Source: an uncultured Alphaproteobacteria bacterium
Lineage (GTDB): Bacteria > Pseudomonadota > Alphaproteobacteria > RF32 > CAG-239
Direction: 5' to 3'
Assembly (NCBI GenBank): GCA_944393665.1
Contig: CALYAX010000007.1
Span: forward strand, 13,937 to 77,936
DNA: 64,000 bases
Part shown: positions 294 through 20,700 of the stretch, one piece after another
Layout of the letters: each line of letters begins with the position of its first letter
How positions within the stretch are numbered: the stretch's first letter is position 1
Notes under the pieces: model-generated
What the model was told of the DNA's origin: nothing
The model's input: only the letters and a program-made list of their open reading frames with translations
Database searches by the model: none
Translations under genes and position numbers: made by a program

Positions 294-704
294 TCAGTCG
301 GCGACACAGTTGTTGCCACGCCATTTCCAGGCCGTTACCCGGTTGTTTTGCAGCAAAAAGACCGTCTGGCAGTAATATTCAACCTGATAGCCGAAGGCTT
401 CGCCATAAGGCGTGTAGTCATAATCGCCCAAAAACGGCGAGTAAATTCCGTCATACTGATTGGCAAAGCTTCCCTGGTTGTAAATATAAAATTCCGACGG
501 GACATAAACATCATTGGCTTTGACATAAGCCAAAACCTCGTCGCCGCCCGCCAGCATTTTGACGGCGCTCGGCTCGCCCAGCTTATTGATAAGCTCGGAT
601 TTGGTCAACCCCACCAGCGTATTGAGTTTGGCGTCATATTTGGCCGGCGTGGCGCAGGCAAAAATCAGAAAAGTGACGATTAAGGCAAAAGATATTTTTT
701 TCAT
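294..704 (-). CDS. Small lipoprotein of unknown function (136 aa)
   Basis: N-terminus 'MKKISFALIVTFLIFAC' is a signal peptide with a lipobox-like Cys. A strong RBS 'AAGGAAGGAAAAG' lies upstream on the minus strand. Confidence 0.5.
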   Translation of the reverse strand: MKKISFALIVTFLIFACATPAKYDAKLNTLVGLTKSELINKLGEPSAVKMLAGGDEVLAYVKANDVYVPSEFYIYNQGSFANQYDGIYSPFLGDYDYTPYGEAFGYQVEYYCQTVFLLQNNRVTAWKWRGNNCVAD

Positions 705-999
705 TTGCTTTTCCTTCCTTGTTAAACGGCTCAGGTGCTATATAAGCTGTGAAAACGGCAATTTTCAGCTAGCCAAAAGTTCTTTTTCCGGCAAAACGGC
801 TAAAAATTTTCATAACCGGAAAATCACAAAATGCCCCCTGAACAAGTTGTATTTCTTATATAACTTATATATTGGGATTTTAAAAAATCCGCGGTCTCCA
901 AAATATTTCTGTCTACCATATGCTAATTGGTATTGATTGTTGCGCAGTTTTAGATTATAATAAAGGGAGTTTCGGAACAGCAATTATTGGAGAACAGCC

Positions 1000-3738
1000 A
1001 TGAGAACAGTATTTCTTGCTATATTAGCTTTAGCCTTGAGCAGTATTTCTGCGATGGCTTTACCTCCAGGCCATACATACACACACAACACCACCTTTGC
1101 TGTTCCGGAACAGTCTTATCAGGAAGCCAGGCTGTGGTTTCTTCCCGATTATCAGGACAGTACCTTCTCCAAACGTACCGATACCGCTCCCAGCGGCTCC
1201 GGCGACCGCAACGACGCCGATTATACCTGTGAGAAGACTTATAACCTCAATACCTCCTGTACAACCCCGCAGATTGTCGAAAAAGTCCACAACATGGGCA
1301 AAACTGTCTGTTATAAGTGCAAATGTCCCGACAATTATAAAACAACTTCCTGCAAAACCGGATGGCATTTGAGCGGCACCCCCTGCAAAATCGGCACCAC
1401 CAGTTATTACACCGGCTGTGCCGCTGATTCCTGTCCCAACGGATATACGGCAGGCAAAACCTGCGGTGCCGGATATACTCTGGAAAAATCCGGACAGTCC
1501 GGCGACCAGTACTGCGGCAAATGCGTGGCCAAGACCTGTCCTTCGGGTTACAGCGCCGGCCTGAGCAACTGCAACGGCAAGGCCTATCCCTCGGGCTGGA
1601 CTTATGCCTCCAACGGTTATTCCGGCGACAGTATCTGCGGCAAATGTACCGCCAAGACCTGTTCTTCGGGCACGGCGGGCTTGTCCAACTGTAGCGGCAA
1701 AGCACATCCGGAGGGGTGGACTTACAGCTCCAGCGGTTATGCGGGGGACAATATCTGCGGCACCTGTACGGCGAAGGGCTGCCCGGCGGGTTATACGGCG
1801 GGCACCACCCAGTGCAGCAACACCACAAGCTGGACCTATGGTTCCAACGGTTATGCCGGTGACAGTATTTGCGGCAAATGTACGGAAAAAGGCTGTGCCG
1901 AAGGCTTTACGAAAGGCCTGGCCAACTGTAATGCAAAAGCGCACCCGGCAGGATGGAGTTACAGCACCGGAACGCCCAGCGGCAACACCGTTTGCGGCAA
2001 ATGTACCGCCAAAACCTGCACATCCGGCACCACCAGCTGTTCAACCGGTTATGTGGGCGAAGCCAACGGCTATTATTCTGGTGACAGCGCCTGCCTGACC
2101 TGTAAGGTGGCCTGTACGCCGACCTGTCCGACCGGCTGGAGCCTGACGGCGCCGACAAACTGCAAATACGGCGGCACGGTTACGACAGCCGATTCAGCCG
2201 GCTGCGGCAGCACATGTTACCGCTGCGAGGCGATGGTTGCCACATCATGCCAGCAGGTTATTGATCATACCAACAGCAAATATCCGGGCAAGATTGTCCT
2301 GGAAGGTATTTATGACTGCGGCGACAAGACAATCACTTTGGCTGACGGGCAGTCCCTGGTCGGCAAGTCTTACTATACCGGAGCCACAGAATCGGCGACG
2401 TCCAAATCTGCCGGACTGACCTTCTCGACGACCAAATCAGGTGTCAAGAGCATTACAGCCACCGGAAACAACACGACGGTTGCCAATATGCAGATTAAAC
2501 ACACGGCTACTTCGACTAGCCAGACAGTGATTGATATGGGCTTTAATCTGACCGATCAGGTTGTCAAAGATGTTAATATCGTGTTTGACTCCCAGACTGT
2601 GCCGCAATTTTCCTCGAGCTCTAACCATACAACCGGTATCGCCATCGGCGGCACGAGTGCGACGATGACTTTGAAGGGTAATGTTTACATCAGCAATATT
2701 GATGCCAACCCCTCAAACCCGACCAGCCGCTACAATAACGGCATTATGGCCTGCAGAACCAAGTCGGGAAGCAACAATATGGCAGAATCGTCGGCCTTTG
2801 TTACGATCGGAAAAGACACCACCGTCAATGTTAATATTGTGGGCAATTTCGATGATATCGGTATTGGCTGCGGTAGCTATGATGTGACCGACAATGCCAA
2901 GGTTTACACCGATGTCAACGGCTCAAGCTTTTACGGGGCATCGGTTCGCGGAAATGCGGTTGTCAATGCCAACTGCAACCGTGACAATTATCTTGGCGGC
3001 TGTGTCTCAAGCCTTCAGTTGTATGACAACGCGGCGGTTAACGTTTACCTGTACGGTTCTTACACCGGCGGTTTGAGCTCCTATGCAACTGGCGGCACGG
3101 TCTCGTTAAACTCGTCCAAGAGCGTTATCACGATTACTCAGGATAATCGCCAGTACAGTAATTCCAAGTGTTTCCAATGGACTAATCTGGGCTGTGTGAC
3201 CGGCTCTAAGATCAGCTGCTTTGGCAAGACCTATAACTGTACCATTGATACGGAAAAGACAATTAAGTCGGAATCCGGGGATGTCCCGCCCTCACCGTGG
3301 TTTGTCCCCGCGGGCGGAGCACAAAGCTGCCAGCCTTATTTCTCGACAACAGGCACCTGTCCGGCTCACGGAACCTGCACTACCTGTCCGATTAACAAGT
3401 CGTACATCCGGGTTGATAAATGTGATGACGGCTGGGCTGTCGACGGCATTAAATGTAAACAGACCTGCCTGTATAACAACACATATGAGCCCGATGGTTA
3501 CCGCTGCCAAACCTGCACACGGTTAGGGGTGACCTACTATGGCGGAACTTGTTATAAAGATTGCCAGATGGAATCAGATAAAAACATGCAGAAATGTTAC
3601 CAAAACATGGAAAGCTGTATGAGTGGCGGCAGCAGCCAGGATGTCTGCTACCAGGCGATGGATACCTGCATGTACAATGCTCAGATGTCTTATCAAGATT
3701 GCATGATGAATATGGAAGATAATACCATAATCTGGTAG
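1000..3738 (+). CDS. Large secreted Cys-rich protein. It has about 8 tandem repeats of roughly 40 aa ('GDSICGKCTAKTC...NC.GKAHP.GWTY'), a central Gly/Asn/Val-rich beta-helix-like region and a Cys-rich C-terminus.
   Basis: Signal peptide 'MRTVFLAILALALSSISAMA'. RBS 'GGAG' 8 nt upstream. A roughly 120-bp nucleotide tandem periodicity spans 1440-2100. The C-terminal 150 aa carry many Cys and Met. Confidence 0.7.
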   Translation: MRTVFLAILALALSSISAMALPPGHTYTHNTTFAVPEQSYQEARLWFLPDYQDSTFSKRTDTAPSGSGDRNDADYTCEKTYNLNTSCTTPQIVEKVHNMGKTVCYKCKCPDNYKTTSCKTGWHLSGTPCKIGTTSYYTGCAADSCPNGYTAGKTCGAGYTLEKSGQSGDQYCGKCVAKTCPSGYSAGLSNCNGKAYPSGWTYASNGYSGDSICGKCTAKTCSSGTAGLSNCSGKAHPEGWTYSSSGYAGDNICGTCTAKGCPAGYTAGTTQCSNTTSWTYGSNGYAGDSICGKCTEKGCAEGFTKGLANCNAKAHPAGWSYSTGTPSGNTVCGKCTAKTCTSGTTSCSTGYVGEANGYYSGDSACLTCKVACTPTCPTGWSLTAPTNCKYGGTVTTADSAGCGSTCYRCEAMVATSCQQVIDHTNSKYPGKIVLEGIYDCGDKTITLADGQSLVGKSYYTGATESATSKSAGLTFSTTKSGVKSITATGNNTTVANMQIKHTATSTSQTVIDMGFNLTDQVVKDVNIVFDSQTVPQFSSSSNHTTGIAIGGTSATMTLKGNVYISNIDANPSNPTSRYNNGIMACRTKSGSNNMAESSAFVTIGKDTTVNVNIVGNFDDIGIGCGSYDVTDNAKVYTDVNGSSFYGASVRGNAVVNANCNRDNYLGGCVSSLQLYDNAAVNVYLYGSYTGGLSSYATGGTVSLNSSKSVITITQDNRQYSNSKCFQWTNLGCVTGSKISCFGKTYNCTIDTEKTIKSESGDVPPSPWFVPAGGAQSCQPYFSTTGTCPAHGTCTTCPINKSYIRVDKCDDGWAVDGIKCKQTCLYNNTYEPDGYRCQTCTRLGVTYYGGTCYKDCQMESDKNMQKCYQNMESCMSGGSSQDVCYQAMDTCMYNAQMSYQDCMMNMEDNTIIW

Positions 3739-3756
3739 AAGCTTTAACAGAAATAC

Positions 3757-3790
3757 TCCCCGGTGGATTTATCCGGGGAGTTTTTTTGTT
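3757..3790. terminator. Bidirectional rho-independent terminator between the Cys-rich protein gene and lexA
   Basis: Hairpin 'ctccccggtggatttatccggggag' followed by a T7 run. The reverse complement also carries an A/T run. Confidence 0.6.
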
Positions 3791-3798
3791 AAATCATT

Positions 3799-4455
3799 TC
3801 AGTGATAGGTCCGGATTAAACCGCTGAGAATCCCCTGAACTTTAACGCGCCCTGCTTCCAGCCGCCGCGGCTGATAAGCCTCATTTTTGGGGATAAGCAC
3901 CACCTCGGGTCCTTCTTTGCGCAGTTCTTTCAATGTGGCCTCGCATTCATCAACCAGCGCCACAACAATATCGCCGTTATTGGCGTAATCAGCTTTTTTA
4001 ATAATGACGGTATCTCCGTCCATAATACCAATCCCGGTCATGGAATCTCCCTCAATCGTGAGGGCGTAATAGCGGCCGCGGCTGACCATATCAAAAGGAA
4101 CCGGAAATTTTTCGGTTTCATTGGCAATGGCCTCTATCGGCGTTCCCGCGGCAATTTTTCCGTACAGGGGAATTTCAACCATGCCGTTATGAATGGCCTC
4201 CTCACGCTTTTTTTCTTCTTCCACAATAGAACTGGGTTTAAGTTTGGGCAGGCGGACAACCTCAAGGGCGCGGGCTTTATGAGGAAGTTTTTTCAAGAAA
4301 TTGCGCTCGACCAGCGCCTCAATGAGAGCGTGAATACCTGATTTTGACTTGACGCCGACGGCCTCTTTCATTTCATCAAACGAAGGGCAGCAGCCGGTTT
4401 CACGGAGAACTTTGTTGATGTACATCAGCAGGTTATATTGTTTTTCTGTCAGCAT
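3799..4455 (-). CDS. lexA: LexA SOS repressor (S24 peptidase)
   Basis: N-terminal wHTH 'MLTEKQYNLLMYINKVLRETGCCPSFDEM' and C-terminal 'GDSMTG...GDIVVALVDECEATLKELR...VKVQGILSGLIRTY'. This is the canonical LexA length and Ser/Lys dyad context. Confidence 0.9.
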   Translation of the reverse strand: MLTEKQYNLLMYINKVLRETGCCPSFDEMKEAVGVKSKSGIHALIEALVERNFLKKLPHKARALEVVRLPKLKPSSIVEEEKKREEAIHNGMVEIPLYGKIAAGTPIEAIANETEKFPVPFDMVSRGRYYALTIEGDSMTGIGIMDGDTVIIKKADYANNGDIVVALVDECEATLKELRKEGPEVVLIPKNEAYQPRRLEAGRVKVQGILSGLIRTYH

Positions 4456-7697: not shown

Positions 7698-7772
7698 GGT
7701 CCCATCGTCTAATGGTTAGGACACCACCCTTTCACGGTGGTAATATGGGTTCGAATCCCGTTGGGATCACCA
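7698..7772 (+). tRNA. tRNA-Glu (anticodon UUC)
   Basis: The cloverleaf can be drawn by hand. Acceptor stem GGTCCCA/TGGGATC, anticodon loop CTTTCAC, T-arm GGTTCGAATCC, and the 3' end ACCA is encoded. A terminator hairpin follows at 7781-7807. Confidence 0.85.
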
Positions 7773-7979: not shown

Positions 7980-8048
7980 TGTAGCGCGCAAAATGGTTCT
8001 GGATTTATTGCAAAATGGTTCTGGGTCGGTTTTAAAGTCTAGGTTTTT

Positions 8049-8150
8049 GTAAGAAGAAAGATGGATTTACATAACTGGGATTCCGATATATCCCGGTAAA
8101 TCTCGGTTAATCCCAGTTATCCAGAACTATCTTTCTTCTTACACTTTTCG
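8049..8150. repeat. Long imperfect palindrome (about 34-bp arms, about 30-nt centre) in an ORF-free AT-rich stretch
   Basis: Left arm 'gtaagaagaaagatggatttacataactgggatt'. The right arm's reverse complement is 'gtaagaagaaagatagttctggataactgggatt'. The central part 'ccgatatatcccggtaaatctcgg' is itself partly palindromic. Confidence 0.6.
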
Positions 8151-8533
8151 CCATTCTGATGTTTAGTTATGATTTCATTCTTAATACTGTTGGAGAATTT
8201 TGAAGCGTGCATAGAGTTTTTCTTAATATTTACATTGAATAGCTAAAAATGAACTTATTATATAGAATTATTGGCTATTAGCTGAAAAGCTTTACTAATA
8301 AAAGATTTTTCAGATCCATTTTTAGCATATATTGCTGTTTTATTAGTTTCTAGATTGCAATTATGAGTCTTATTTTAATTGGCCCTATATTGACAGCCTA
8401 AATCCTAAATTAAAAGTCATATTCTTAACCTTTCTAATATAAAAGGACATCAAAACGAATACATTTTTCATTAATTAATGTATGGGTTTCCATAATATAC
8501 AACTAGATAATGTTATCAAGAAAAATAAAATAA

Positions 8534-9073
8534 TTAGGTAATTAGCTTATTATAAACTTGTTCTAACAATAGAAAATATACAGATTGACATTTTTCTAAT
8601 TCGCTATCTTTTACAATAGTACCAGCGATAGGAATATCAATTTCAACGATAAAATAATTATCCAAATAACGAACAATATCTAAAAATTGATATAAATATT
8701 CCTTAGTTATAAATTCTTGGTCTGTTAGAAAAAAATCAAAAAAACTATGTGCACATATATTTCTTATTTTTCTAGCCTTTTCTATTATGTCAATTTGGTC
8801 GCTTTTCAAGCAATAGAACTCGAATCCATATTCAAATACACCACCACAACGACTACAATTATTTTTATATTTACTGCTTACCTTTTGGTAAGGCTTGCAA
8901 TTATCAATCAGTTCTATGCTGAAAAAATCTTTTAATTTCTCTGTCAGCATAATTTTTGAATATTCGTATAAAAGCATATGTAATGTTGAAAATATTATTT
9001 GTTCTTTTAATGTTGATGTATCTTCAGACAAGAGTTTCTCCAATTTTTCATTTATACTATCGTAGGTATGCAT
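8534..9073 (-). CDS. Hypothetical protein with a HEPN-like Rx4H motif (Abi_2/AbiD-like abortive-infection candidate)
   Basis: 'EKARKIRNICAHSF' matches the HEPN R-x4-6-H signature. The protein is 179 aa, AT-rich, and located on the island. Confidence 0.3.
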   Translation of the reverse strand: MHTYDSINEKLEKLLSEDTSTLKEQIIFSTLHMLLYEYSKIMLTEKLKDFFSIELIDNCKPYQKVSSKYKNNCSRCGGVFEYGFEFYCLKSDQIDIIEKARKIRNICAHSFFDFFLTDQEFITKEYLYQFLDIVRYLDNYFIVEIDIPIAGTIVKDSELEKCQSVYFLLLEQVYNKLIT

Positions 9074-9169
9074 GTGTTTCAGACCTTTTTACATATAATT
9101 AATTTAAGATATTGTATGTAGTTAATTCTGAGAATACAATATCTTTATTGTAATGATGAGGATTCTAAA

Positions 9170-9790
9170 ATGGATATTAAAGAAATACATGACCAGCAAA
9201 TGTTTCATAAAGAAAATTTAATAAATGTTGAAGAGAATCAACTTTTACAGCATGTAATGGATTTCGCTAAAATGGGACTAAAAGGGATTTTCATACTAAA
9301 TGGAACGGCAGCAATATCTCTATTAACCTTATTTACACACATCATTCTTATAGAAAAATATGATATTGCGCATGGAATTTTCTGGGCAACAATTACTTTT
9401 GCTGTTGGCGCAGCCCTATCTTCATTAAGTATCTTTCTGGCATGGTATGCCCAAGGAAAATTTCAAGATACGGCCTATTATGCTAATCTAATCGAAATTG
9501 CTCGGATTAGAACTTCTCATAGTAAGGACGATAAATTAGATTACATAAAGAAAATGCACATCAAAGAAATATCTATTGATGAAAAAAATGATAAGTTTTT
9601 TAAGAGCTTAAAAATATATCAGGAAGAAAATAATAAGTATATTGATGAACAAATGAAAAAGGAAAGCTCATCAAGGCTAAAAGGAAACTTTACTCAAGGA
9701 TTTGTTGTATTTATAATTTTTCTAGCATTCGCTGCATTCGTCTATGGCATCTTTCTTACTTATGATTCTTTAGAGTGTGTTATAAAATGA
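9170..9790 (+). CDS. Hypothetical membrane protein (2-3 TM helices)
   Basis: Hydrophobic segments 'GIFILNGTAAISLLTLFTHIILI', 'IFWATITFAVGAALSSLSIFLAWY' and 'FVVFIIFLAFAAFVYGIFL'. It overlaps the next ORF by 16 nt. Confidence 0.4.
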   Translation: MDIKEIHDQQMFHKENLINVEENQLLQHVMDFAKMGLKGIFILNGTAAISLLTLFTHIILIEKYDIAHGIFWATITFAVGAALSSLSIFLAWYAQGKFQDTAYYANLIEIARIRTSHSKDDKLDYIKKMHIKEISIDEKNDKFFKSLKIYQEENNKYIDEQMKKESSSRLKGNFTQGFVVFIIFLAFAAFVYGIFLTYDSLECVIK

Positions 9791-10470
9791 TTTATTCCAA
9801 TGCCGATATTAAATTTGAGAATAGATATAGTAGTATTTTCAAGGCCCAGATAGAAATTCATAAAAAAGGTTTGGGAGAAGCTTTTTACAATGAAAAATTT
9901 CAATATTATGAAAAAGTTTTATACAATACTGATGTTATATTTGATAAAATATCTTTACTGGAAAAAAAAGCATTTAATAAAAACTTATATAAACCTTTTA
10001 AATACATAAATATTAAAGGTTTGTATCATGTTCATCATTTTCAGCCACTCAATATGGCAAAAAATTGCAAAAAAATATTCAACGCAAAAGCTAAAAATTA
10101 TTCAATGAATGTTGAACAATATGAAGAGTGCATATTCAGTGTATTATATTTATATAATCGCATGATTAAGAATTTATCTGAAAATGAAGCATATGAAAAA
10201 GCTCTGGGTTATTTAACAAGAAATAGGATCGATGACTGTTATATTGAAGCGTGCGACAAAAAGATACTAACTGGAGATTGGCTTGTCTTATTGCGTAAGG
10301 ATGATGTAAATTACTATTTAACATTAGCTAGACATGAAGAACCTCAAGATATGATTTTCAAACGTGTATTTATAGCAATTGAAGAATTAATATTTGGTAG
10401 AAAGCATGGCTTTGATATTAAGAATGTTGAAGCGGTTAAAAAGCCCTTAGAAACGGAGCTTTGGGATTAA
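9775..10470 (+). CDS. Hypothetical protein (231 aa)
   Basis: Long ORF in the low-GC island, apparently translationally coupled to the preceding membrane protein. No recognisable motif. Confidence 0.35.
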   Translation: MCYKMIYSNADIKFENRYSSIFKAQIEIHKKGLGEAFYNEKFQYYEKVLYNTDVIFDKISLLEKKAFNKNLYKPFKYINIKGLYHVHHFQPLNMAKNCKKIFNAKAKNYSMNVEQYEECIFSVLYLYNRMIKNLSENEAYEKALGYLTRNRIDDCYIEACDKKILTGDWLVLLRKDDVNYYLTLARHEEPQDMIFKRVFIAIEELIFGRKHGFDIKNVEAVKKPLETELWD

Positions 10471-10589
10471 TATTTACTTAATAGTTAGGTATACCGAAAA
10501 AAGAGGTTCGAAATTTTATTGCAACCTACATTGCATTAATGAGACTTAAAAATGTATAAAATCGCATTAGTCCGTACAATTTATTCGGT

Positions 10590-10801
10590 TCACCAATCAC
10601 AACACCTTCCTTTTTGGAGGGTGTTTTTTGTTTAAAGACCTGATGTAATCGTACGGTTTCCTTAGGGTATACGAAATTTTACTGTCTTGTAATTTCAAGT
10701 TTGAAAGTAAAAGGTTCAAAATCTCTCTTTTGTTTTCTACTTTCGAACTCTGGAAGATTTGGTACGCATTATTACCCAAGGAAAGTATTGTGGCGACTGC
10801 G
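10590..10801. repeat. Direct repeat copy B (212 bp). It begins with a tRNA 3'-end-like TCACCAATCACAA and a degenerate terminator hairpin.
   Basis: See copy A. 'ttcaccaatcacaacaccttcctttttggagggtgttttttgtttaaagacctgatgtaatcgtacggtt...'. Confidence 0.8.
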
Positions 10802-10971
10802 ATTGAAAACTTTTCATCGGCTTTAGTCAACAGTTCCGACCTTCCTTCGAGTTTGTACTGTTCTTTTTTTATCTCCTCACTCATATCACGGTATTCTTCC
10901 GGCGTGATTTTCCTTTTATATAACAGTGACCATTGCAACTTGGTTTTTGACAAGATTTTTGTAGATAACAC
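10597..10971 (-). CDS. Repeat-associated hypothetical protein (124 aa). Its C-terminal 70 aa are encoded inside repeat B, and a truncated near-identical reading frame exists in repeat A.
   Basis: The ORF extends from unique sequence into the repeat. The copy-A frame (7709-7957) lacks the N-terminal 42 aa and runs into the tRNA, so it is likely non-functional. Confidence 0.3.
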   Translation of the reverse strand: MLSTKILSKTKLQWSLLYKRKITPEEYRDMSEEIKKEQYKLEGRSELLTKADEKFSIAVATILSLGNNAYQIFQSSKVENKREILNLLLSNLKLQDSKISYTLRKPYDYIRSLNKKHPPKRKVL

Positions 10972-11371
10972 AGCTTAGGTTTCTGATTTTAAAATTTCAA
11001 TCAATACAAAATTTTGGAGAACTTATAGATGTGATATAATAAAAAACTTAGATCGAGAAAATAATGAGGAAAGAATAATTGGTTATAATATAGTATTGCT
11101 TTGCACGATATCGTTTTTTTGCAAGCATATTATCCAATTATTAAGTTAATTTTATATTTCGAACTGGCTGAACTAATTAATAAAAGGTAAAATTTACTAT
11201 TCTTATGAAAGCCCTTTAACTTTATCGGGAAATAAACAAAAAATAAACAAAAAAGACATTTTCTATTTTTTATTCTTGAAAGTTAAAGAAACTTATTATA
11301 TATTATCATCGTATTAAATTAATTACAATGTAGATATTCTAAAAATGAAATAATTTAAAATTTTTATTGAG

Positions 11372-12577
11372 ATGGACAAAAGTGAAAAATTGGCACGGAT
11401 TGAAAAAATCCTGTCTCGTGGTGTAATTAAGAATATTATGCCATCTGAAGAAGAATTCAAAGCACGTTTGTTATCCGATGAGTCTATGCGTTTTTACATA
11501 GGTGCTGACCCAACTAGTAATTCATTACATTTGAGTCATGCAAAGAACTTCATGCTTTTAGAGGAGTTTAGGCAACTCGGGCATAAAGTTTTCGTTCTTT
11601 TCGGAGATTTAACCGCTTGTATCGGAGACCCTAGTGACCGGAATTCTGCTCGTGCAAGACTGACTAGAGAACAGGCTCGGAAAAATGTTGAAGATTGGGT
11701 TCGTCAAATTCGCCCCATAATTAACTTTGATGATCTTGAAAATCCTGCCGAAGTTGTTCTTAACAGTACGTGGTTTGATAAAATGTCAGTTACGAATTTA
11801 ATCGACCTGCTATCCAATTCCACAGTGCAAAGAATGCTTGAAAGGGATATGTTCCAGAAACGTCTCAGCGAGAACAGGCCTATCCATTTGCATGAGTTTA
11901 TCTACCCCATGTTTCAGGGATTTGATAGCGTCGCATTGGATGTAGATGTAGAAATTTGTGGTTTAGACCAGACATTTAATGCCCTTATGGGAAGAACTCT
12001 TGTCAAACGCTTTAAAGACAAGGAAAAGTTCGTTGTTTGTGTTAATTTGATGGAAAACCCTGTTACTGGTGAATTGATGTCAAAATCAAATGGTACAGGG
12101 GTTTTCCTTAACATTGATGCACAAACCATGTTCGGTCAAATCATGGCACTACCGGATGAAATGATTAAGCTTATTCTTATTAACAATACCCGCGTTTCTT
12201 TAGAAGAAATAGAGGCGTTGGATATTAAGAATCACCCTCGAGATGCTAAAATCTTTACAGCGACAGAAGTTGTCAGAATTTTCCATGGCCAAAAAGCAGC
12301 AAATAATGCGAAACAGACTTTTTTAGAGACATTCTCTAATAAGACGTTTCCCGCAGATGCTCCGGTTATTGAAATTGAGACCCCTGAAATTCAGGTGTTG
12401 GAACTTCTGAAAAAATGCAAAAATGAGTCGAATTCTGAATTGAGACGGCTTGTTAAGCAGGGTGCTGTAAGTGCTGATGGCAAAAAAATTACCGATGAAA
12501 CCTCAATTCTTGAGGTCAAACAAGAGCTTCAGCTCAAAGTTGGTAAACGAGGATTTTTCTTAATAAGAAGTAAGTAA
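11372..12577 (+). CDS. tyrS: Tyrosyl-tRNA synthetase paralog (class I; HIGH-like 'HLSH', KMSKS-like 'LMSKS', C-terminal S4 domain)
   Basis: 'FYIGADPTSNSLHLSHAKNFMLLEEFRQLGHKVFVLFGDLTACIGDPS' aligns with the E. coli TyrRS 'GFDPTADSLHLGHL...[22 protein letters not shown]'. 'ELMSKSNGTGVFL' corresponds to KFGKT/KMSKS. C-terminal 'LVKQGAVSADGKKITDE' is S4-like. Confidence 0.8.
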   Translation: MDKSEKLARIEKILSRGVIKNIMPSEEEFKARLLSDESMRFYIGADPTSNSLHLSHAKNFMLLEEFRQLGHKVFVLFGDLTACIGDPSDRNSARARLTREQARKNVEDWVRQIRPIINFDDLENPAEVVLNSTWFDKMSVTNLIDLLSNSTVQRMLERDMFQKRLSENRPIHLHEFIYPMFQGFDSVALDVDVEICGLDQTFNALMGRTLVKRFKDKEKFVVCVNLMENPVTGELMSKSNGTGVFLNIDAQTMFGQIMALPDEMIKLILINNTRVSLEEIEALDIKNHPRDAKIFTATEVVRIFHGQKAANNAKQTFLETFSNKTFPADAPVIEIETPEIQVLELLKKCKNESNSELRRLVKQGAVSADGKKITDETSILEVKQELQLKVGKRGFFLIRSK

Positions 12578-12590
12578 ATTATTCACTATA

Positions 12591-12633
12591 AAAGAAAAGG
12601 TTAGAGTTTTATTCTCTAGCCTTTTCTTTTTAT
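12591..12633 (+). terminator. Rho-independent terminator after the TyrRS-like gene (16-bp stem)
   Basis: 'aaagaaaaggttagag-ttttatt-ctctagccttttcttt' followed by a T-rich stretch. Confidence 0.6.
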
Positions 12634-12641
12634 AAAAAATA

Positions 12642-12670
12642 TTGACAAAATTTTAAAGAAGCTTATAAGT
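12642..12670 (+). promoter_or_regulatory. Putative sigma70 promoter (TTGACA, 16-17 nt, TATAAG) for the sulfotransferase-to-HAD operon
   Basis: 'aaaaatATTGACAaaattttaaagaagctTATAAGtt'. A nearly identical -35 context 'aaaaatattgacaa' recurs at 16337 upstream of the TrpRS-like gene. Confidence 0.4.
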
Positions 12671-12701
12671 TAATTATTCATTAAAAATTCAGGAGAGTAG
12701 T

Positions 12702-13586
12702 ATGGGAAAAGATATTATCCCTATTTTTGTATTAGGTACTCCTAGATCTGGAACTACTGTTATTGGAAAATATATTTCAACCCACAAAGATATCTTGGAC
12801 ATGGGAGAATATGCCGGTTTTGATTTTACTTATCGTGTTGCTCCCAATTTAATGAAAACATTACCGTCTACTTTTAAGGATGAGTATTTATTTAGTCTTC
12901 AAAATCATGCAACACAATTCGCTCACGAAATGGCAATAAAAAATAATTGCCATTATTTTTGTGATTCTACTCCATGGACATTATTAGCTATGGATAAAAT
13001 TAAAGACAAATTGCCCGGTGCAAAATTTGTTTTATGTATACGAGAACCTCAAGGTGTGATACAGAGCCTGGAACGCAGCTTCAAAAGCGGGAGGAAATGG
13101 GCCGGAGAAAATAATCAGGAGCGTTTTAGACTTTGGAAAGATTTTTATGAAAAAGTAAAATTTATTCCTCAAAAAGATCTAATGGTATTCAATTATAGTA
13201 ATTTCTGCAAAAAACCTGAGGAAGAACTCTCTCTATTAGATCAGCAGTTATTTGCGCATGGTATTACTCCAACTTCGCTAGATAAAACGATTTTTGCAGA
13301 AACTCATGCCACTGTTGTATCTGATCATCGGCCTGTTAGTGCCAGAGTTGATAATAACGGTCATATTACATTATTGGCACGGGAAGATTGGAACAATGAA
13401 AAATGGACCATTCAAGATGAAATGATGTTGCAAACTGACAATGGATATAAGGAAATTTTAAATTTTTTAAAGAATTTACCGTTAAAAAATAGTTTACACC
13501 CTGCTGTTATTTATAAAAATAAATATCTTTCTTCTTTAGCTCAAAATGTTAATATGGTAACAAATTTGAAAGATAATATTCGGTAA
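12702..13586 (+). CDS. PAPS-dependent sulfotransferase family protein
   Basis: N-terminal 5'-PSB-like P-loop 'VLGTPRSGTTVIGKYI'. Size and architecture are typical of the Sulfotransfer family. Confidence 0.5.
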   Translation: MGKDIIPIFVLGTPRSGTTVIGKYISTHKDILDMGEYAGFDFTYRVAPNLMKTLPSTFKDEYLFSLQNHATQFAHEMAIKNNCHYFCDSTPWTLLAMDKIKDKLPGAKFVLCIREPQGVIQSLERSFKSGRKWAGENNQERFRLWKDFYEKVKFIPQKDLMVFNYSNFCKKPEEELSLLDQQLFAHGITPTSLDKTIFAETHATVVSDHRPVSARVDNNGHITLLAREDWNNEKWTIQDEMMLQTDNGYKEILNFLKNLPLKNSLHPAVIYKNKYLSSLAQNVNMVTNLKDNIR

Positions 13587-13619
13587 AGAAAGTACATATA
13601 TTTAAGCTAGAGTTTAATT

Positions 13620-14690
13620 ATGAAAAATTATGAGCTACTACTGCACCATATTCAAAATGGTGTTGTGTTATCAAGATTAGAAATTTTTAATGCTTTGAAG
13701 ACATTGTACCATGAGACAGACAACCAGCAAGCAAAATTTTGCATGGGAATGATTCTTTATGGGTTATCCGTAAGAGTTCCTACGCCTGAAGAACTTTGGG
13801 GCTTAGTTGATTTTGTTGAATATCTAGAACCATCTCTCCTAAAAAATAAGAGAAAACTTCCAATTTGTGAACCTGTCATTGGTTTGGCGGGAAGTGGCAA
13901 AAAAGGTATAAAAACCTTTAATATATCAACTATCTCTGCAATTGTTGCAAGTGCGGCGGGGTGCTTTATTTCTAAAGCCGTATCCAAATCAGTTTCTTCT
14001 GTGACCGGCTCTTCTGATATATTAAGTGCTGCCGGAGTTAACATAGATATTTCATTTGAAAAAATGATAAAAATTTTTACAGAAACAGGGCTTGGTATTT
14101 TTCAAATCGAAAAGACCATTCCTAAATTTGACAATTTTTATGGTGGAATATTTTTAGTCCCTCATGCACTATCGTATGCGCTTGCTGCTATTGTTAACCC
14201 TATTTTATGTGATAGCATTATTTATGGTTTTGCTGGAAAAAATATTGAAATTTCCAGTAAAATTTTGCATCAGATAGGATTAAAAAAAGGTGTGGTTGTT
14301 TCATCAACAGATGATAAAGTCTTATATATTGATGAGCTCACTCCATTGCAATATAATAATATTTCTTATATTGAGACACAAAAAACCTCTAAAAATATTA
14401 ATCTAACAAACATATTTGGATGTAAAAGATGTTCTCCTGATGAATTGAAAAGCAGCATAGATATAAATGGTCAATTAGATATTTTTAATTTATGTCTTTC
14501 AGGAAAGGCATCTCAAGCTCAAAATAATGCTATTGCAATGAATACAGCTTTTATGATTACCGAAGCTGGGATTACAGACAATCTAAAAACAGCTTTTGAA
14601 ATGGCTCATGATATTATTATGTCGGGAAAGGCATTAAAACAATTTAATCATTTCAAAGAAATGGTCAATGATTTGGGAGAGGACAGATGA
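13620..14690 (+). CDS. Divergent anthranilate phosphoribosyltransferase (TrpD)/glycosyltransferase family 3 homolog with an altered PRPP-binding loop
   Basis: 'GLAGSGKKGIKTFNISTISAIVASAAGCFISKAVSKSVSSVTGSSDILSAAGVNIDI' compared with the E. coli TrpD '[54 protein letters not shown]'. GTGGDG and KHGNR are replaced, suggesting a changed substrate. Confidence 0.6.
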   Translation: MKNYELLLHHIQNGVVLSRLEIFNALKTLYHETDNQQAKFCMGMILYGLSVRVPTPEELWGLVDFVEYLEPSLLKNKRKLPICEPVIGLAGSGKKGIKTFNISTISAIVASAAGCFISKAVSKSVSSVTGSSDILSAAGVNIDISFEKMIKIFTETGLGIFQIEKTIPKFDNFYGGIFLVPHALSYALAAIVNPILCDSIIYGFAGKNIEISSKILHQIGLKKGVVVSSTDDKVLYIDELTPLQYNNISYIETQKTSKNINLTNIFGCKRCSPDELKSSIDINGQLDIFNLCLSGKASQAQNNAIAMNTAFMITEAGITDNLKTAFEMAHDIIMSGKALKQFNHFKEMVNDLGEDR

Positions 14691-15685
14691 ATAATAGTGT
14701 AATTCTATTTGATATAAAAAAGAATTGCTGGAAAGAATATTCTCGTCCTCTGCCAGAGTTAACTACCGACGAAAGCCTCGTTAAGGTAGAATTTGCCGGA
14801 TTGTGCGGCAGTGACATGCACAGAATAAAAGCACCTACAAGCCATGAAACTCAGGTTGTCATGGGACATGAAATAATTGGTACTGTTAAAAAATCTGATA
14901 AAGAAACATTAATAGGAAAGAAAGTCGTCATTAACCCAATTGCTAATTGTAGAAAATGCTCTTCTTGCAATGATGGCTTAACACAATTCTGTTCAAATAG
15001 TAGAAATATAGGAAAAAATATCGATGGAGCCTTTGCTAAATATTTAAAAGTTCCCAACAAAAGTCTGTATATTGTTCCAGCGAATTTTCAAGCTGAGTTG
15101 GGGGTTTTAGTTGATGGAGCGGCCGTGATCATAAATGGTATAAAAAAGCTGTCAAAAAAACCCCATTCTGTTTTAGTTATTGGGGATGGAACCGTTGGCT
15201 GCCTATCCATTGCGGTGTTGAAAGCCTTATATCCGGAAATAAAAATTTCGTTACGCGGGCATCATAATACTGATTATGTAAATCAAGTATATAGCACATC
15301 AGCCCCCCAAGAAAATGAAAAGTTTGATTTAACAATCGAAACTGTAGGACGTGCACAATCAGATACTTTAAACCAATGTGTTGAATATGCTTCTATTGGG
15401 GGTCAAATTTTAATAATGGGGGTTTATCCTCCTAACTTTTCTTTAGATTTTAATGCCAGAACCGCTTTTTATAAGGAATTAGCAATATATGGTGTTAATT
15501 CGTTTTGTGTTACAAAAAAAAGAGACGATTTTAGAGAAGCATTAGCTTTAATTGATTCCCATCCGGAGTTTTTTGCTCCATTAATCACTCACAAATTTTT
15601 ATTATCCGATTTCAATCTTGGTATTGCAAAAATGTTGGATAAAAGTAAAGAAGCTGTCATAAAAGTTATTTATACTACTGCTTAA
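14687..15685 (+). CDS. Zn-dependent medium-chain alcohol dehydrogenase (threonine/sorbitol dehydrogenase-like)
   Basis: 'GLCGSDMH', 'GHEIIGTV', the structural Zn Cys cluster 'CRKCSSCNDGLTQFC', and Rossmann 'VLVIGDGTVG'. A 4-nt ATGA overlap with the upstream gene. Confidence 0.75.
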   Translation: MNNSVILFDIKKNCWKEYSRPLPELTTDESLVKVEFAGLCGSDMHRIKAPTSHETQVVMGHEIIGTVKKSDKETLIGKKVVINPIANCRKCSSCNDGLTQFCSNSRNIGKNIDGAFAKYLKVPNKSLYIVPANFQAELGVLVDGAAVIINGIKKLSKKPHSVLVIGDGTVGCLSIAVLKALYPEIKISLRGHHNTDYVNQVYSTSAPQENEKFDLTIETVGRAQSDTLNQCVEYASIGGQILIMGVYPPNFSLDFNARTAFYKELAIYGVNSFCVTKKRDDFREALALIDSHPEFFAPLITHKFLLSDFNLGIAKMLDKSKEAVIKVIYTTA

Positions 15686-15692
15686 GGATTTC

Positions 15693-16310
15693 ATGAAAGA
15701 CATCAATATAAAAAATTATCAGCTTGTTTTATTGGACTGGGATGGTACATTAGTCAGAACTCGAGAGAATGTTATTTATGCAATGCAACCCGTTTCTCAA
15801 AAATATAGAAAACTAGACTGGTTTGAATTAGATAAAATTAGAAATCACAATTTATCTTTAGAAGACAATTTTGAAAATTTCTTTCATGAAAATAAAGATA
15901 TTGCATACGATTTATATCTAAAAACTTACATATCTGGTATAAAAAATAATGTGCATAAAATTACCGGTGCGGATAAATTACTTAAAATTCTAGATACCTT
16001 ATCCATAAAAAAAGCTATAGTTACCAGCAAAGACAGAATACTTTGGGAAATAGAAAAGAACACATTTAATACATCTTTTGATTTTTCTGTATGTAAAGAT
16101 GAATGTGATCACAATAAACCCCTGCCTGATCCAATACTTAAGGCAATAGCCCATTTTTCAATTTCCAAAAGTAACGTGTTGATGATTGGAGACAGCCGAC
16201 ACGATTATATAGCGGCTAAAAAAGCAAAAATCGATTCTATCATTATTGGAGAAGAAATATACGCTACTTTTGATAATTTAGACACACTAATAAAAAAAAT
16301 ATTCTTTTAG
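15693..16310 (+). CDS. HAD-superfamily hydrolase (phosphatase)
   Basis: Motif I 'LVLLDWDGTLV'. Motifs 'VTSK' and 'IGDSRHD' later in the protein. 8 nt after the ADH stop. Confidence 0.65.
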   Translation: MKDINIKNYQLVLLDWDGTLVRTRENVIYAMQPVSQKYRKLDWFELDKIRNHNLSLEDNFENFFHENKDIAYDLYLKTYISGIKNNVHKITGADKLLKILDTLSIKKAIVTSKDRILWEIEKNTFNTSFDFSVCKDECDHNKPLPDPILKAIAHFSISKSNVLMIGDSRHDYIAAKKAKIDSIIIGEEIYATFDNLDTLIKKIFF

Positions 16311-16349
16311 ACCCTTTAAACATCGAAAACTTATTTTAGCTAAAAAATA

Positions 16350-16392
16350 TTGACAATTTGACAAAATAAAATTAATGATTTACTAATAATAT
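16350..16392 (+). promoter_or_regulatory. Putative promoter upstream of the TrpRS-like gene (tandem TTGACA elements)
   Basis: 'aaaaatATTGACAatTTGACAaaataaaattaatgatttactaataat'. It shares the 14-mer 'aaaaatattgacaa' with the 12636 promoter. Confidence 0.3.
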
Positions 16393-16435
16393 TAGGTGCG
16401 AGAATAACAATTCGCTTTTAAACGGAACTAAAAAT

Positions 16436-17557
16436 ATGTCTAAAGATATTTCATCAAACTTAATCTTTAATGATGAATATTATAAAGAAGTCATTGATAA
16501 ATATGGCTACAATGCTTTTGATTTCAAACCTATTGATTTTGATATTTCTCATTTGGATAAAAAGGCACTCAATCAACGGTGGTTATGTCATTTTGATGGA
16601 GAACCTTTTTCTCAAGCAATAAATAATAAAGAAAAAGCAATCGTCACAACTGGAGTTGGATTATCCGGGGCTCCTCACATGGGAACAATTTCCCAAATGA
16701 TGCGTGCAATATTTTTACAGGAACAAGGATTTAATGTTCAATTCGTCTTGGGGGACTTAGATTCATATAATGCTCGCTCTCAACCATATCCTGTTGTAAA
16801 AGCCAGGGCTGAACAATATAAAGAATTCATTACCAACCTTGGCTTTTCAAAGGAAAAAGGAATTTTACGCTCACAAGATAATAATCCTGAAGTCTGCAGA
16901 ACGGCTTATTTGATTTCTCGATGCCTGACAGATGAAGATTTCCTTAATGCAGAAGAAGACTTATCGGAATTATATCAAAAACAAGGTGCTTATCCAGGTA
17001 TTAAATATCCGGTTAAACAGGCTATCAATCTAATGGTGGCTGATTTTATTCATCTTGGAATGGCAGATAAGAATAAAAGTGTTATGGTAATGCTTGGTTT
17101 GGAAGAACATCTCTATGTCAGAATTGCAAAGGATGTTATAAAAAGGATGGAAATGCCTTTTCATCTCGGAGCAATGTATTCCAAAATTATTAAAGGCTTC
17201 AATGGTTTTCCTAAAATGAGTAAAAGTATTCCCGGATCCTCAATAAACGTTGATATGAATATTGATCAAATAAGACATAAACTTCAACATGAAGAAGGGC
17301 ATTACAGCAAACCTGATGATTCTGTTGCCTATCAAATGATGTGTGCTGTCTCAAATTATACCCCTAGAGATCTAAATATTCTTCACGAAAAATGTTCTGT
17401 CGGCGGTCGGTATTGGAGTGCGGCAAAAGATGAATATGCAGAATATCTTGACTCTATTTTTAAAAAATGGCCTAAGGATAAGGTATTCGATCGGAGTGCA
17501 ACTATGAATCCTATAGATATGTTTATTATGAAAAATGGCTGCGGCAGAAAACTCTAA
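16436..17557 (+). CDS. trpS: Tryptophanyl-tRNA synthetase paralog (class I, KMSKS present)
   Basis: 'TGVGLSGAPHMGTISQMM' resembles the TrpRS 'GxQPSGELHLGNY'. 'GLEEHLYVRIAKDV' resembles 'GEDQKQHLELSRDIA'. Exact 'FPKMSKSIPGS'. Confidence 0.7.
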   Translation: MSKDISSNLIFNDEYYKEVIDKYGYNAFDFKPIDFDISHLDKKALNQRWLCHFDGEPFSQAINNKEKAIVTTGVGLSGAPHMGTISQMMRAIFLQEQGFNVQFVLGDLDSYNARSQPYPVVKARAEQYKEFITNLGFSKEKGILRSQDNNPEVCRTAYLISRCLTDEDFLNAEEDLSELYQKQGAYPGIKYPVKQAINLMVADFIHLGMADKNKSVMVMLGLEEHLYVRIAKDVIKRMEMPFHLGAMYSKIIKGFNGFPKMSKSIPGSSINVDMNIDQIRHKLQHEEGHYSKPDDSVAYQMMCAVSNYTPRDLNILHEKCSVGGRYWSAAKDEYAEYLDSIFKKWPKDKVFDRSATMNPIDMFIMKNGCGRKL

Positions 17558-17958
17558 AATTTAATTTTAGCCAAGACTTCATCACTATTATATTCTTTTT
17601 TTTCAAGCTTAGGCCATGTATCTAACCCATCATTGTCAAAACGAGGGAAAATATGGATATGAAAATGGAATACTGACTGCTGAGCAGATTTACCGCTGGC
17701 ATGTAATATATTAATACCTGTAGCACCTAACCGTTCTTTTAAATGCAAACTAATTTTTTTTGCAAACTTGATAATATGAGTAAGCTCTTCTTCTGGAATA
17801 TCAAAAATATTTTCATAATGCTTATTAGGAACGATAAGCAAATGACCATAGACCTCCATTTTTCTGGGTAGAAAACAAGATAAGATATTATCTTGATAAA
17901 TTATTTTTCCCGGAAGTTCTTTGGCACAAATCTTACAAAATACACACTCCATGAGCAA
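17554..17958 (-). CDS. HIT-family (histidine triad) nucleotide phosphoramidase/hydrolase
   Basis: N-terminal 'CVFCKI' and the histidine triad 'HFHIHIFPR'. It is convergent with the TrpRS-like gene, sharing 4 nt with it. Confidence 0.75.
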   Translation of the reverse strand: MLMECVFCKICAKELPGKIIYQDNILSCFLPRKMEVYGHLLIVPNKHYENIFDIPEEELTHIIKFAKKISLHLKERLGATGINILHASGKSAQQSVFHFHIHIFPRFDNDGLDTWPKLEKKEYNSDEVLAKIKF

Positions 17959-19825: not shown

Positions 19826-19847
19826 TATTTTTTCCTAATTGGATACA

Positions 19848-20204: not shown

Positions 20205-20700
20205 TAGAGATATCCTTTCAATTTTTTTAATCTATATTACACCACTTTGACTTACAAGATAAAATGTAATTATATTTTTTTATCTTTGGGATAAATATTA
20301 GAGTTAATAAAATGGTGATGAATGATATATCAAATTAATTTTCTATAATTTCTTGATATTTGTGATTATTTTGTAAAAATGTCTTAGCTAATCGGTATGT
20401 GTACATAGTTGCCTTGTAATATTCAGGAGTAAATAATAGTTCGAAATTCGTTGCGAAACTGTCACCAATGCAAACGGCGGCCTACAAAATGGCTGCTTTT
20501 TCTTTATTTTCCAAAGCTTTCAGCGAGTTCGAGTGTTTGATTTTCAAAAATTGCGTTTGGGGAAGTTTTTCTGAACTTTGGCGCTAAGGTTTCTTTGTTT
20601 TTCAATGGATTAATTGATTTGTTTGGTTTTGAGATTCTGGGATATTTAAAACTTGTCAATTAAAATAATTTATTGTTTAATTTCATTATAGGAGATTACA

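Follow-up and report, generated by a model that had tools for sequence, protein, structure and literature searches.

A predicted exported, cysteine-rich protein with a conserved repeat stalk and a variable beta-helix head, encoded in a putative recombining cassette of uncultured gut Alphaproteobacteria

In the sap family of Campylobacter fetus, several S-layer paralogs have a conserved 5' region and an N-terminal anchor in common, and recombination reassorts the variable rest. Sap proteins are Cys-poor, leave the cell by type I secretion without a Sec signal, and are served by one promoter that is moved by inversion. The family described here likewise joins a conserved 5' region and N-terminal part to a variable remainder, but each of its cassettes has a promoter and a terminator, whereas sap uses one shared promoter. 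A second comparison is offered by type Va autotransporters (pertactin, Hap, IgA1 protease, and chlamydial Pmps). They share with the protein studied here (the query) a Sec signal peptide, a right-handed beta-helix, and a low-charge composition rich in T, S, G, and N. A distant family member (P0048) is itself an autotransporter, in which the same Cys units are fused to the barrel. However, where these proteins have a C-terminal beta-barrel (PF03797), the query has a Cys-stapled helical hairpin. PF03797 had no match in the query at E<=1, while a control gene at 26120-28822 in the window, the 64,000-nucleotide stretch of alphaproteobacterial DNA analysed here, matched at 4e-14. The query also differs in its Cys-rich stalk of 355 aa and in its Cys content of 7%; the window encodes a classical Pmp-type autotransporter as well, and that protein has only 2 Cys.

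Pectin-lyase-fold enzymes and tailspikes (FdlA 7xze, HK620, PL6 alginate lyases, and polygalacturonases) have the fold predicted for aa 431-748 of the query, with Foldseek E-values of 5.7e-4 to 1e-1 and probabilities of up to 1.0. Tailspikes also resemble it in that a beta-helix head can be exchanged on an N-terminal part that stays conserved. However, the identity is 9-13%, no signature of these families is present, and the query is a Sec-exported protein in a context of chromosomal housekeeping genes. The remaining comparison is with protozoa of the gut lumen. The variant surface proteins (VSPs) of Giardia carry CXXC motifs (PMC2188815), and the Entamoeba Gal/GalNAc lectin undergoes gene conversion (PMC3125142). 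The likeness to the query family is a functional analogy only: these are CxxC-rich, presumably protease-resistant extracellular multigene families of gut-lumen organisms that diversify by recombination, but they have no detectable homology to the query, their Cys spacing differs, and the query organism is bacterial. The conserved part is N-terminal in the query family, whereas the conserved anchor of Giardia VSPs is C-terminal.

The 912-aa reading frame described in an earlier note stands, with ATG as its start (Table 1). So does its description as Cys-rich, as 64 residues (7.0%) are Cys; T, G, S, and N are also abundant. The overall architecture given there, a signal peptide followed by a Cys-repeat module, a beta-helix, and a Cys-rich tail, is broadly borne out. 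Searches of the whole protein against Pfam, NCBIfam, PADLOC, and PHROG gave nothing meaningful; the sole Pfam match at E<=1 was a chance TBP hit, and a PDB sequence search returned chance matches only.

Table 1. Features of the locus (positions are those of the window; a full stop denotes no single strand)
Feature	Position	Strand	Basis or remark
Sigma-70-like promoter, TTGATT-17-TATAAT	933..961	+	paralogs have a -35/-10 pair at equal distance from ATG
Conserved 5'UTR box, GTTTCGGAACAGCAATTATTGGAGAA	969..994	+	contains RBS GGAGAA (989-994)
CDS, 912 aa, secreted Cys-rich modular protein (predicted)	1000..3738	+	ORF call, composition, homologs
Predicted signal peptide, aa 1-20, MRTVFLAILALALSSISAMA, AxA-type site	1000..1059	+	hydropathy; kept in homologs
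Family leader, aa 21-75	1060..1224	+	homolog alignments; AlphaFold2 predicts disorder
Cys-repeat stalk, aa 76-430, ~8 CxxC beta-hairpin units (predicted)	1225..2289	+	repeats, models, alignment, dN/dS
Right-handed parallel beta-helix head, aa 431-748 (predicted)	2290..3243	+	AlphaFold2, Foldseek, alignment
Cys-rich linker module, aa 749-850	3244..3549	+	AlphaFold2 (low confidence), searches
C-terminal helical hairpin, aa 851-912 (predicted)	3550..3735	+	AlphaFold2, alignment, searches
Conserved terminator hairpin, CTCCCCGGTGGATTTATCCGGGGAG, with U-run	3756..3787	.	folding, locus comparison
Putative allelic-replacement tract	1230..~3800	+	comparison with same-species locus L032

The signal peptide, also proposed earlier, was called by a rule of thumb that combines hydropathy with an AxA site. 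The N-terminus begins with MR; aa 4-18 form its hydrophobic core (mean Kyte-Doolittle value 2.4), and A-M-A follows at aa 18-20. There is no second hydrophobic segment in the rest of the protein (maximum 0.85). The query lacks a Cys after the signal peptide, and a lipoprotein reading was rejected for this reason. A Cys is found at this place in some paralogs, but their lipobox is poor. The leader consists of a spacer (YTHNTTFAVPEQSYQEARL), the segment WFLPDYQ (aa 46-52, nt 1135-1155), and RTDTAPSGSGD, in that order. Its consensus in the family is A-x-x-[WY][WF]LPD[WY], in which A, P, and D are present at 100%, and at least 74 distinct complete proteins bear the leader and have this invariant N-terminal motif in common. 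A profile search with the leader only yielded just 12 short fragments, all from metagenome-assembled genomes (MAGs) of gut Alphaproteobacteria. The shared leader may be a common sorting, processing, or anchoring signal.

The stalk is predicted by modelling to be a rod of ~8 Cys-stapled beta-hairpin units without a detectable relative in Pfam or the PDB. Eight CxxC-bearing units begin at aa 104, 172, 213, 253, 291, 332, 365, and 406 and together span nt about 1285-2289. The earlier note had placed about eight 120-bp repeats at nt 1440-2100. The eight units at the protein level and the 120-nt periodicity stand, but only four of the eight units are canonical 40-aa units (aa 164-323, nt 1489-1968) with the framework C-x2-C-x4-C-x9/10-C, a unit HMM detects five in the query, and Tandem Repeats Finder (TRF) reports only 2.3 copies (1499-1776, 77% matches). 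A nucleotide repeat search found four copies at 60-73% identity. The spacing of the canonical unit also separates it from the CysRRep repeats of fungi and bacteria, whose Cys spacing is Cx6-9Cx5-7Cx8-11Cx7-8CC (bioRxiv 10.64898/2026.06.07.730663). CysRRep was rejected as a candidate because the spacing differs.

Could the repeats make this a slipped-strand contingency gene of near-identical 120-bp repeats, as the earlier description would have it, built of eukaryote-like modules acquired for host mimicry? The detectable 120-nt periodicity and a unit number that ranges from 3 to 9 would fit, but the number varies solely among distant paralog lineages. The four canonical units share 59-74% nucleotide and 46-71% amino acid identity with one another, and no exact direct repeat in the gene is longer than 20 nt. 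In other words, the repeats are not near-identical, and slippage with size variation is not supported because they are too diverged. The unit HMM finds five units in each of the ten orthologs and close paralogs (61-100% identical), and their positions match apart from an offset due to leader length. No indel was found in aa 96-430 among five homologs aligned in full. The eukaryotic origin fares no better, as the units gave no profile match to eukaryotic Cys-module families (Pfam, E<=1) and no significant fold match; the top Foldseek matches of the stalk, the Entamoeba Gal/GalNAc lectin and EGF-type rods, are non-significant. A contingency gene of this kind is therefore very improbable. The stalk is under strong purifying selection, with 85% of columns invariant among five homologs and a dN/dS of 0.06-0.18 (about 0.1), where dS between two stalk classes is about 0.9-1.1.

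The head is modelled by AlphaFold2 as stacked short strands (aa 430-745, pLDDT 80-92). The top 40 Foldseek matches of the head in the PDB were all right-handed parallel beta-helices (best E 5.7e-4, probability 1.0), so the beta-helix-like core of the earlier note was confirmed at the level of models. From about aa 471 the head is hypervariable: 22% of its columns are invariant among five homologs, as against 85% in the stalk, and nucleotide identity between head types is ~45%. The heads have diverged to saturation. Within a head type there was no sign of positive selection, dN/dS between the query and P0001 being about 0.1. An exhaustive phmmer search, run with head and tail on 1.84 billion representatives, recovered the query's own cluster and, beyond it, two marginal matches only.

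One reading of the head is that it is catalytic. The protein would then be a secreted polysaccharide lyase or hydrolase acting on mucin, dietary glycan, or capsule, with the stalk as a spacer and the head variants as different substrate specificities. The top fold matches, which are fucoidan lyase FdlA, HK620 and Det7 tailspike endoglycosidases, PL6 alginate lyase, and polygalacturonase, point in this direction, and so do the charged residues K523, D524, D530, K559, and R577, which are invariant in the hypervariable head and lie on its successive rungs. However, no glycoside-hydrolase or lyase signature was found in Pfam or NCBIfam even at E<=1, there are no sequence relatives outside the family, and the Foldseek list also holds adhesins (PfbA, SRRP, and the IgA1 protease passenger). 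The beta-helix matches are generic, with E-values of only ~5e-4, and neither a ligand nor a catalytic site was recognised. A dedicated enzyme is thus possible but doubtful. The best reading is a more general one, a variable protein that is secreted or surface-exposed and recognises glycans, both the localisation and the ligand being putative. The role of adhesin or effector proposed in the earlier note would be plausible. After Sec export, periplasmic oxidation of the Cys framework would turn the stalk into a rigid rod that resists proteases and holds out the beta-helix head. Specificity would reside in the head, which would most likely bind or cleave a glycan that belongs to host mucus, to the diet, or to a neighbouring cell.

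Beyond the head, the linker carries two more CxxC units and the motif CP[IFL][ND]xxY[IK]; a linker-type module directly follows the leader in other family members (P0074 and P0023). The terminal hairpin has a twin Cx6C (C866/C873 and C883/C890) and the terminus ..I.W-COOH, and it has a stand-alone 50-aa homolog (P0075). The last 150 aa had been called extremely rich in Cys and Met. This holds for Cys, with 16 residues between aa 777 and 901, but Met-richness is restricted to the last ~62 aa and is not conserved, the last 75 aa of five homologs containing 10, 8, 5, 4, and 5 Met. Copper binding by a Met-rich tail was rejected as a conserved feature, as the Met-richness is found in this allele only.

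The tail also bears on whether the protein might stay in the periplasm, either as a polysaccharide-modifying enzyme or as a NosD/AlgG-like accessory factor, with a possible role of the Cys/Met tail in handling metal. Pfam, NCBIfam, and AlphaFold2 revealed neither an autotransporter barrel nor a lipobox nor a C-terminal sorting domain, which is consistent with a Sec-exported periplasmic protein, as is the Met/Cys-rich tail of this allele. Because no outer-membrane export or anchor domain was found, it is the variability alone that points to surface exposure. However, a periplasmic housekeeping factor would hardly explain the cassette hypervariability, the multicopy paralogy, and the rigid 355-aa stalk; the Met content is not a family trait; and in P0048 the family's Cys units are joined to the barrel of an autotransporter, a device for surface display. 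A periplasmic role is therefore improbable, and a secreted or surface-exposed protein is preferred.

Locus comparisons show that the gene lies in a cassette: promoter, 5'UTR, and leader are conserved at one border, and the terminator is conserved at the other. The 5'UTR box is invariant across orthologs and paralogs (L001 and L029-L032) and confined to this close clade; an exact scan of metagenome contigs gave 0 matches, and RNA folding analysis found no significant structure in it. The terminator hairpin (Delta-G -28.3 kcal/mol, z -7.2) is preceded by an A-run and is therefore predicted to be bidirectional and shared with the convergent lexA. This element recurs after each cassette in L001, L029, L030, and L032. 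Tandem paralog copies are present at related loci, and tblastn found no paralog elsewhere in the window.

A comparison with the same-species locus L032 shows sharp breakpoints. There are 0 differences over positions 1-1229, then 8-25 differences per 100 nt up to ~3800 (75-92% identity), and beyond the tract lexA and lysS are 99.2% and 99.0% identical. The whole gene body was replaced in a genome that is otherwise ~99% identical. The homologs also form a mosaic. The leader of the query is 100% identical to that of P0001 and 89% to those of P0002 and P0003. In the stalk, the query is closest to P0002 and P0003 (95.5-96.6%, against 82.6% to P0001), and P0001 pairs with P0004 (96.3%). In the head, the query again pairs with P0001 (88.9%) and P0002 with P0004 (66%), all other pairs being ~45% identical. 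P0001-P0003 come from one metagenome sample, and their similar coverage suggests a shared genome. Since leader, stalk, and head group the homologs differently, recombination among paralogs is indicated. Segmental exchange between copies is thus seen both in discordant identity matrices and in a sharp 2.6-kb tract within 99-100% identical flanks, in genomes that carry several paralogs with conserved borders and variable bodies. The gene varies by wholesale replacement of the body between conserved 5' and 3' borders, a mode that the earlier note had missed. The head would be diversified by recombination among paralogs in response to selection, whether from immunity, from phage, or from variation in the ligand.

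Phage receptor-binding proteins follow a similar plan, with C-terminal heads that can be swapped on a conserved N-terminal part, and tailspikes are among the best fold matches. The gene might then be a domesticated tailspike-like or receptor-binding protein, or part of a mobile element. However, there was no PHROG match, a Sec signal peptide and 7% Cys are both atypical of the tail proteins of phages, phage genes are not linked to any paralog in the window, and the housekeeping context (lipoprotein, lexA, lysS, and deacetylase genes) is syntenic in three other genomes; the lipoprotein gene and the lexA/lysS flank recur at L001, L029, and L032. A phage origin is the least probable of the explanations weighed here. 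No conserved partner gene adjoins the paralogs in 28 loci.

The search for relatives found 58 homologs, all unnamed. The MAGs of 5 gut species contain 27 loci, at 4-9 copies per MAG, and metagenome contigs contain at least 187 confirmed relatives, many of them labelled human gut and often several per contig. Relatives thus come almost exclusively from gut MAGs and human-gut metagenomes, in line with the earlier suggestion of a host-associated bacterium. The explanation that we favour, with a little more than even confidence in it as a whole, is that the query is an exported modular protein with a stalk and a variable head, encoded in recombining cassettes. It would belong to a large and hitherto undescribed family of paralogs, whose disulfide-rich products are exported by uncultured Alphaproteobacteria of the human and animal gut.

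A Cys content of 7-15% is rare among bacterial proteins. Here a human-gut lineage that is common but uncultured (with 'CAG:495' among the relatives) has a large family of such proteins, none of which is annotated. Its beta-helix heads are freely exchanged, while the stalk that carries them is conserved to an extreme degree. Should the heads bind ligands at the cell surface, a commensal would vary its interactions with host, phage, or glycans by recombination, and a search could be made for a new signal of export or anchoring. A bolder and tentative analogy would make the family a bacterial counterpart of the variant Cys-rich surface coats of protozoa. The family would then be a large repertoire of disulfide-armoured proteins, whose receptor-binding heads are reassorted between expression-competent cassettes. 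The invariant Ala followed by [WY][WF]LPD[WY] would be an N-terminal signal for sorting or processing, so far unrecognised, that routes all members to a putative outer-membrane export or anchoring machinery, and the stalk would be a new disulfide-rich repeat fold. For annotation, the leader, the 40-aa Cys unit, and the C-terminal hairpin deserve domain models. Family members also break short-read assemblies, as is seen from the many contigs that end within them.

The gene for the Cys-rich protein lies where the earlier note had placed it (1000..3738, plus strand, 912 aa). The protein contains 64 Cys (7.0%), and T, G, S, and N are also abundant. Hydrophobicity is confined to aa 4-18 (Kyte-Doolittle 2.4; elsewhere <=0.85), with MR before this segment and A-M-A after it. 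By rule-of-thumb hydropathy, this N-terminus fits a cleavable Sec signal with the rest of the protein soluble, supporting the signal peptide that had been proposed. The whole protein (24-sequence alignment as input) and aa 73-430 (28-sequence alignment; mean pLDDT 85.4) were modeled with AlphaFold2. The analysis shows a protein that is predicted to be both exported and modular.

Features of the Cys-rich gene and its protein, and genes of the low-GC island
Feature	Position	Strand	Remark
Promoter-like TTGATT-17-TATAAT	933-961	+	upstream of Cys-rich gene
RBS GGAGAA	989-994	+	5' of Cys-rich gene
Signal peptide and leader	aa 1-72		AlphaFold2: disordered
Stalk	aa 76-430		AlphaFold2: each unit one long beta-hairpin; elongated overall
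CxxC-bearing units	starts aa 104, 172, 213, 253, 291, 332, 365, 406	+	Cys-rich protein
Four canonical 40-aa units	aa 164-323, nt 1489-1968	+	framework C-x2-C-x4-C-x9/10-C
Head	aa 431-748		AlphaFold2: short strands stacked, pLDDT 80-92
Cys-rich linker	aa 749-850		AlphaFold2: low confidence
C-terminal hairpin	aa 851-903		AlphaFold2: two helices
Class-I Trp/Tyr-tRNA-synthetase-like proteins (two)	11372-12577, 16436-17557		low-GC island
Sulfotransferase	12702-13586		low-GC island
Glycos_transf_3 protein	13620-14690		low-GC island
Zn-dependent dehydrogenase	14687-15685		low-GC island
Hypoth_Ymh protein	18707-19825	-	low-GC island
Mrr-type restriction endonuclease	22709-23695	-	low-GC island

How does the gene vary? 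Near-identical nucleotide repeats prone to slippage and size variation had been claimed. Tandem Cys repeats are indeed present as eight CxxC units, but only four are canonical and they are much less uniform than described: identity among these four is 46-71% at the aa level and 59-74% at the nt level, and direct repeats that match exactly reach at most 20 nt anywhere in the gene. TRF found just 2.3 copies at 77%, and a second repeat search found four copies at 60-73%. Five HMM-detectable units occur in each of the ten orthologs and close paralogs (61-100% identity), at matching positions that shift only with leader length, and no indels occur in aa 96-430 among the five homologs aligned in full. 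Unit number varies (3-9) only between distant paralog lineages. Constant unit number and an indel-free repeat region exclude slippage as the mode of variation, and the gene did not qualify as a contingency-repeat gene.

The clearest evidence of how the gene varies comes from comparing the window with L032, the same-species locus encoding the homolog P0001. The two are identical over positions 1-1229 (upstream gene, intergenic region, and leader), differ by 8-25 per 100 nt between 1230 and ~3800, and are nearly identical past that point (lexA 99.2%, lysS 99.0%). Because a divergent tract sits between such flanks, the body of the gene coding for the mature protein has been replaced in an otherwise same-species background. 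P0001, P0004 (locus L001), and P0063 (locus L029) are syntenic with the window, sharing a 136-aa lipoprotein gene, lexA, lysS, and a deacetylase gene as flanks; P0002 and P0003 lie at other locations, where each has more family members in tandem with it. The putative lipoprotein (294-704, minus strand; begins MKKISFALIVTFLIFAC; without a Pfam match) is divergent from the Cys-rich gene, keeps its position in all three syntenic genomes, and has fully identical (100%) counterparts in L029 and L032. The near-identical genome L029 has no differences at 1-2500 and 30 clustered in 3200-3800, which spans the 3' end of the gene and its terminator; the neighbouring lysS differs by ~1-2%. This cluster possibly marks another conversion tract, smaller than the first.

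Module comparisons, in which W is the window's protein, also point to mosaicism. Leader identity to W is 100% for P0001, 89% for P0002 and P0003, and 76% for P0004. In the stalk, W is 95.5% identical to P0002, 96.6% to P0003, and only 82.6% to P0001, while P0001 and P0004 share 96.3%. Head identity is 88.9% for W and P0001, 66% for P0002 and P0004, and ~45% for the remaining pairs. By these identities, the relationships of leader, stalk, and head are discordant. Each gene also has conserved borders: at the 5' end the position of the -35/-10 pair is kept and a 27-nt stretch of the 5'UTR does not vary (GTTTCGGAACAGCAATTATTGGAGAA, 969-994), and at the 3' end all share a terminator hairpin (3756-3780; delta-G -28.3, z -7.2). 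Sequence homology of the kind needed for exchange is thus visible at both borders, and the comparisons show a cassette whose body is replaced by recombination. Head-to-tail tandem family members, all equipped with a terminator, promoter, and 5'UTR box of their own, occur at L030 (3743-5857, 6001-8730, 8870-9649) and L031 (5393-8119, 8259-8711), with differing head types and C-terminal motifs adjacent (e.g., ...GTYSGSAFSRYIN versus ...I.W).

Among five homologs (W, two syntenic orthologs, and two paralogs), invariant residues make up 85% of the stalk, 22% of the head, and 16% of the hairpin; at the sequence level, a conserved stalk with variable heads is shown. Stalk dN/dS (0.06-0.18) indicates strong purifying selection, and stalks fall into two old allele classes (dS ~0.9-1.1 between, ~0.07-0.13 within). 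Head types are mutually saturated. Since dN/dS within one head type is ~0.1, head diversity comes from reassortment, without detectable recent positive selection.

The top Foldseek matches of the full model in the PDB were all right-handed parallel beta-helices, so the beta-helix-like core noticed earlier is borne out at the fold level, and only generically. They included enzymes and tailspikes (fucoidan lyase FdlA, E 5.7e-4; HK620 and Det7 tailspikes; PL6 alginate lyase; polygalacturonase) and adhesins (PfbA, SRRP, IgA1 protease). In the proposed working, the leader would send all family members down one common pathway, periplasmic disulfide formation would yield a rigid, protease-resistant rod, and the outward-facing beta-helix would be the ligand-specific part that binds or cleaves a glycan. 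The head may be an enzyme, because a few charged residues from one rung to the next (K523, D524, D530, K559, and R577) never vary among the homologs, although the head is hypervariable elsewhere. The C-terminus had been called Cys/Met-rich; Met-richness is confined to this allele, and the Cys pairs are present. C866/C873 and C883/C890 are spaced i to i+7, each pair on one predicted helix, which suggests a disulfide-stapled twin-Cx6C hairpin; in the tails of the five homologs, invariance is limited to C866, C890, C901, and the terminal W912. In a second subgroup (P0013-P0016, P0005, P0006, P0029, P0058), a conserved C-terminal motif, G-x-Y-x-G-x-x-F-S-P/R-Y-I, replaces this W-ending hairpin.

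A 5.8-billion-protein collection contained 58 homologs, all unnamed metagenome/MAG proteins, whose common part is the N-terminal half, above all the leader. The leader consensus from 86 distinct N-termini is [FYL]-[KQ]-[LV]-A(100%)-[AGK]-[TIL]-[WY]-[WF]-L(98%)-P(100%)-D(100%)-[WY]-[QL]-x4-S-R, and a G/D-rich stretch comes after it. Where the leader is short, the invariant Ala occupies position -1 of an AxA signal-peptidase site, so the mature protein begins with the motif. Where it is long, as in W, ~25 conserved residues (YTHxTxFAVPEQSYQ) intervene; P0061 (87% identical to W; P0001 90%-identity cluster) has the short form. The leader presumably serves all members as a signal for sorting, processing, or anchoring. 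Its motif picks out 27 loci across five MAG species from the gut, 'Proteobacteria bacterium CAG:495' among them, at 4-9 copies each. Metagenome contigs yielded 187 confirmed relatives, often several per contig and many labelled human gut; many contig ends cut family genes. The fetched loci hold 74 distinct complete leader-bearing proteins (110-912 aa, typically 10-15% Cys), and no recurring neighbour gene was found beside paralogs. The multicopy family is restricted to gut Alphaproteobacteria. In some paralogs at L008-L028 (MAG E27__bin196, SI.A99 bin196), the residue right after the predicted signal peptide is a Cys (...FPAEATC-TTHT, ...DFASC-TTPTHT); this weak lipobox-like arrangement, absent from W, might mean that some are lipid-anchored.

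W had no meaningful match in Pfam (E<=1), NCBIfam, PADLOC, PHROGs, or PDB sequences, and no account of the family turned up in literature searches. Filter-free phmmer with aa 431-912 against 1.84 billion representatives returned only its own cluster and two marginal matches, P0074 and P0075, which show that the linker and the 50-aa hairpin are separable modules. P0048, the sole homolog with precomputed Pfam domains, is an Acetobacteraceae-type autotransporter whose passenger bears the same Cys units; W tested negative for an autotransporter barrel. The suggested resemblance to eukaryote-like Cys modules found no support in either profiles or folds. In its working, W resembles beta-helix adhesins and tailspike-like glycan binders that sit on a stalk, and the family as a whole is reminiscent of variable surface-protein repertoires that recombine. 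Conceptually, it comes closest to the Cys-rich coats of protists living in the gut, namely Giardia VSPs (PMC2188815) and the Entamoeba lectin, which has gene conversion (PMC3125142); W is a member of none of these groups. The family is unusual, abundant in the human gut, and clear-cut in its evolutionary behaviour, with uncultured hosts.

Elsewhere in the window, a low-GC island (8000-23800; 27-35% GC versus ~48% elsewhere) lies directly downstream of tRNA-Glu(ttc) (7698-7772) and looks horizontally acquired; its duplicated aaRS-like genes beside tailoring enzymes are unusual. A gene for a highly charged, K/E-rich 680-aa protein with no Pfam match (29229-31271, plus strand) adjoins that of a classical 900-aa autotransporter (26120-28822, minus strand) with Chlamydia-PMP-type GGAI/FxxN repeats, a PF03797 barrel, and only 2 Cys. 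This shows that the organism has the standard type V pathway too and employs it for a beta-helix protein poor in Cys.
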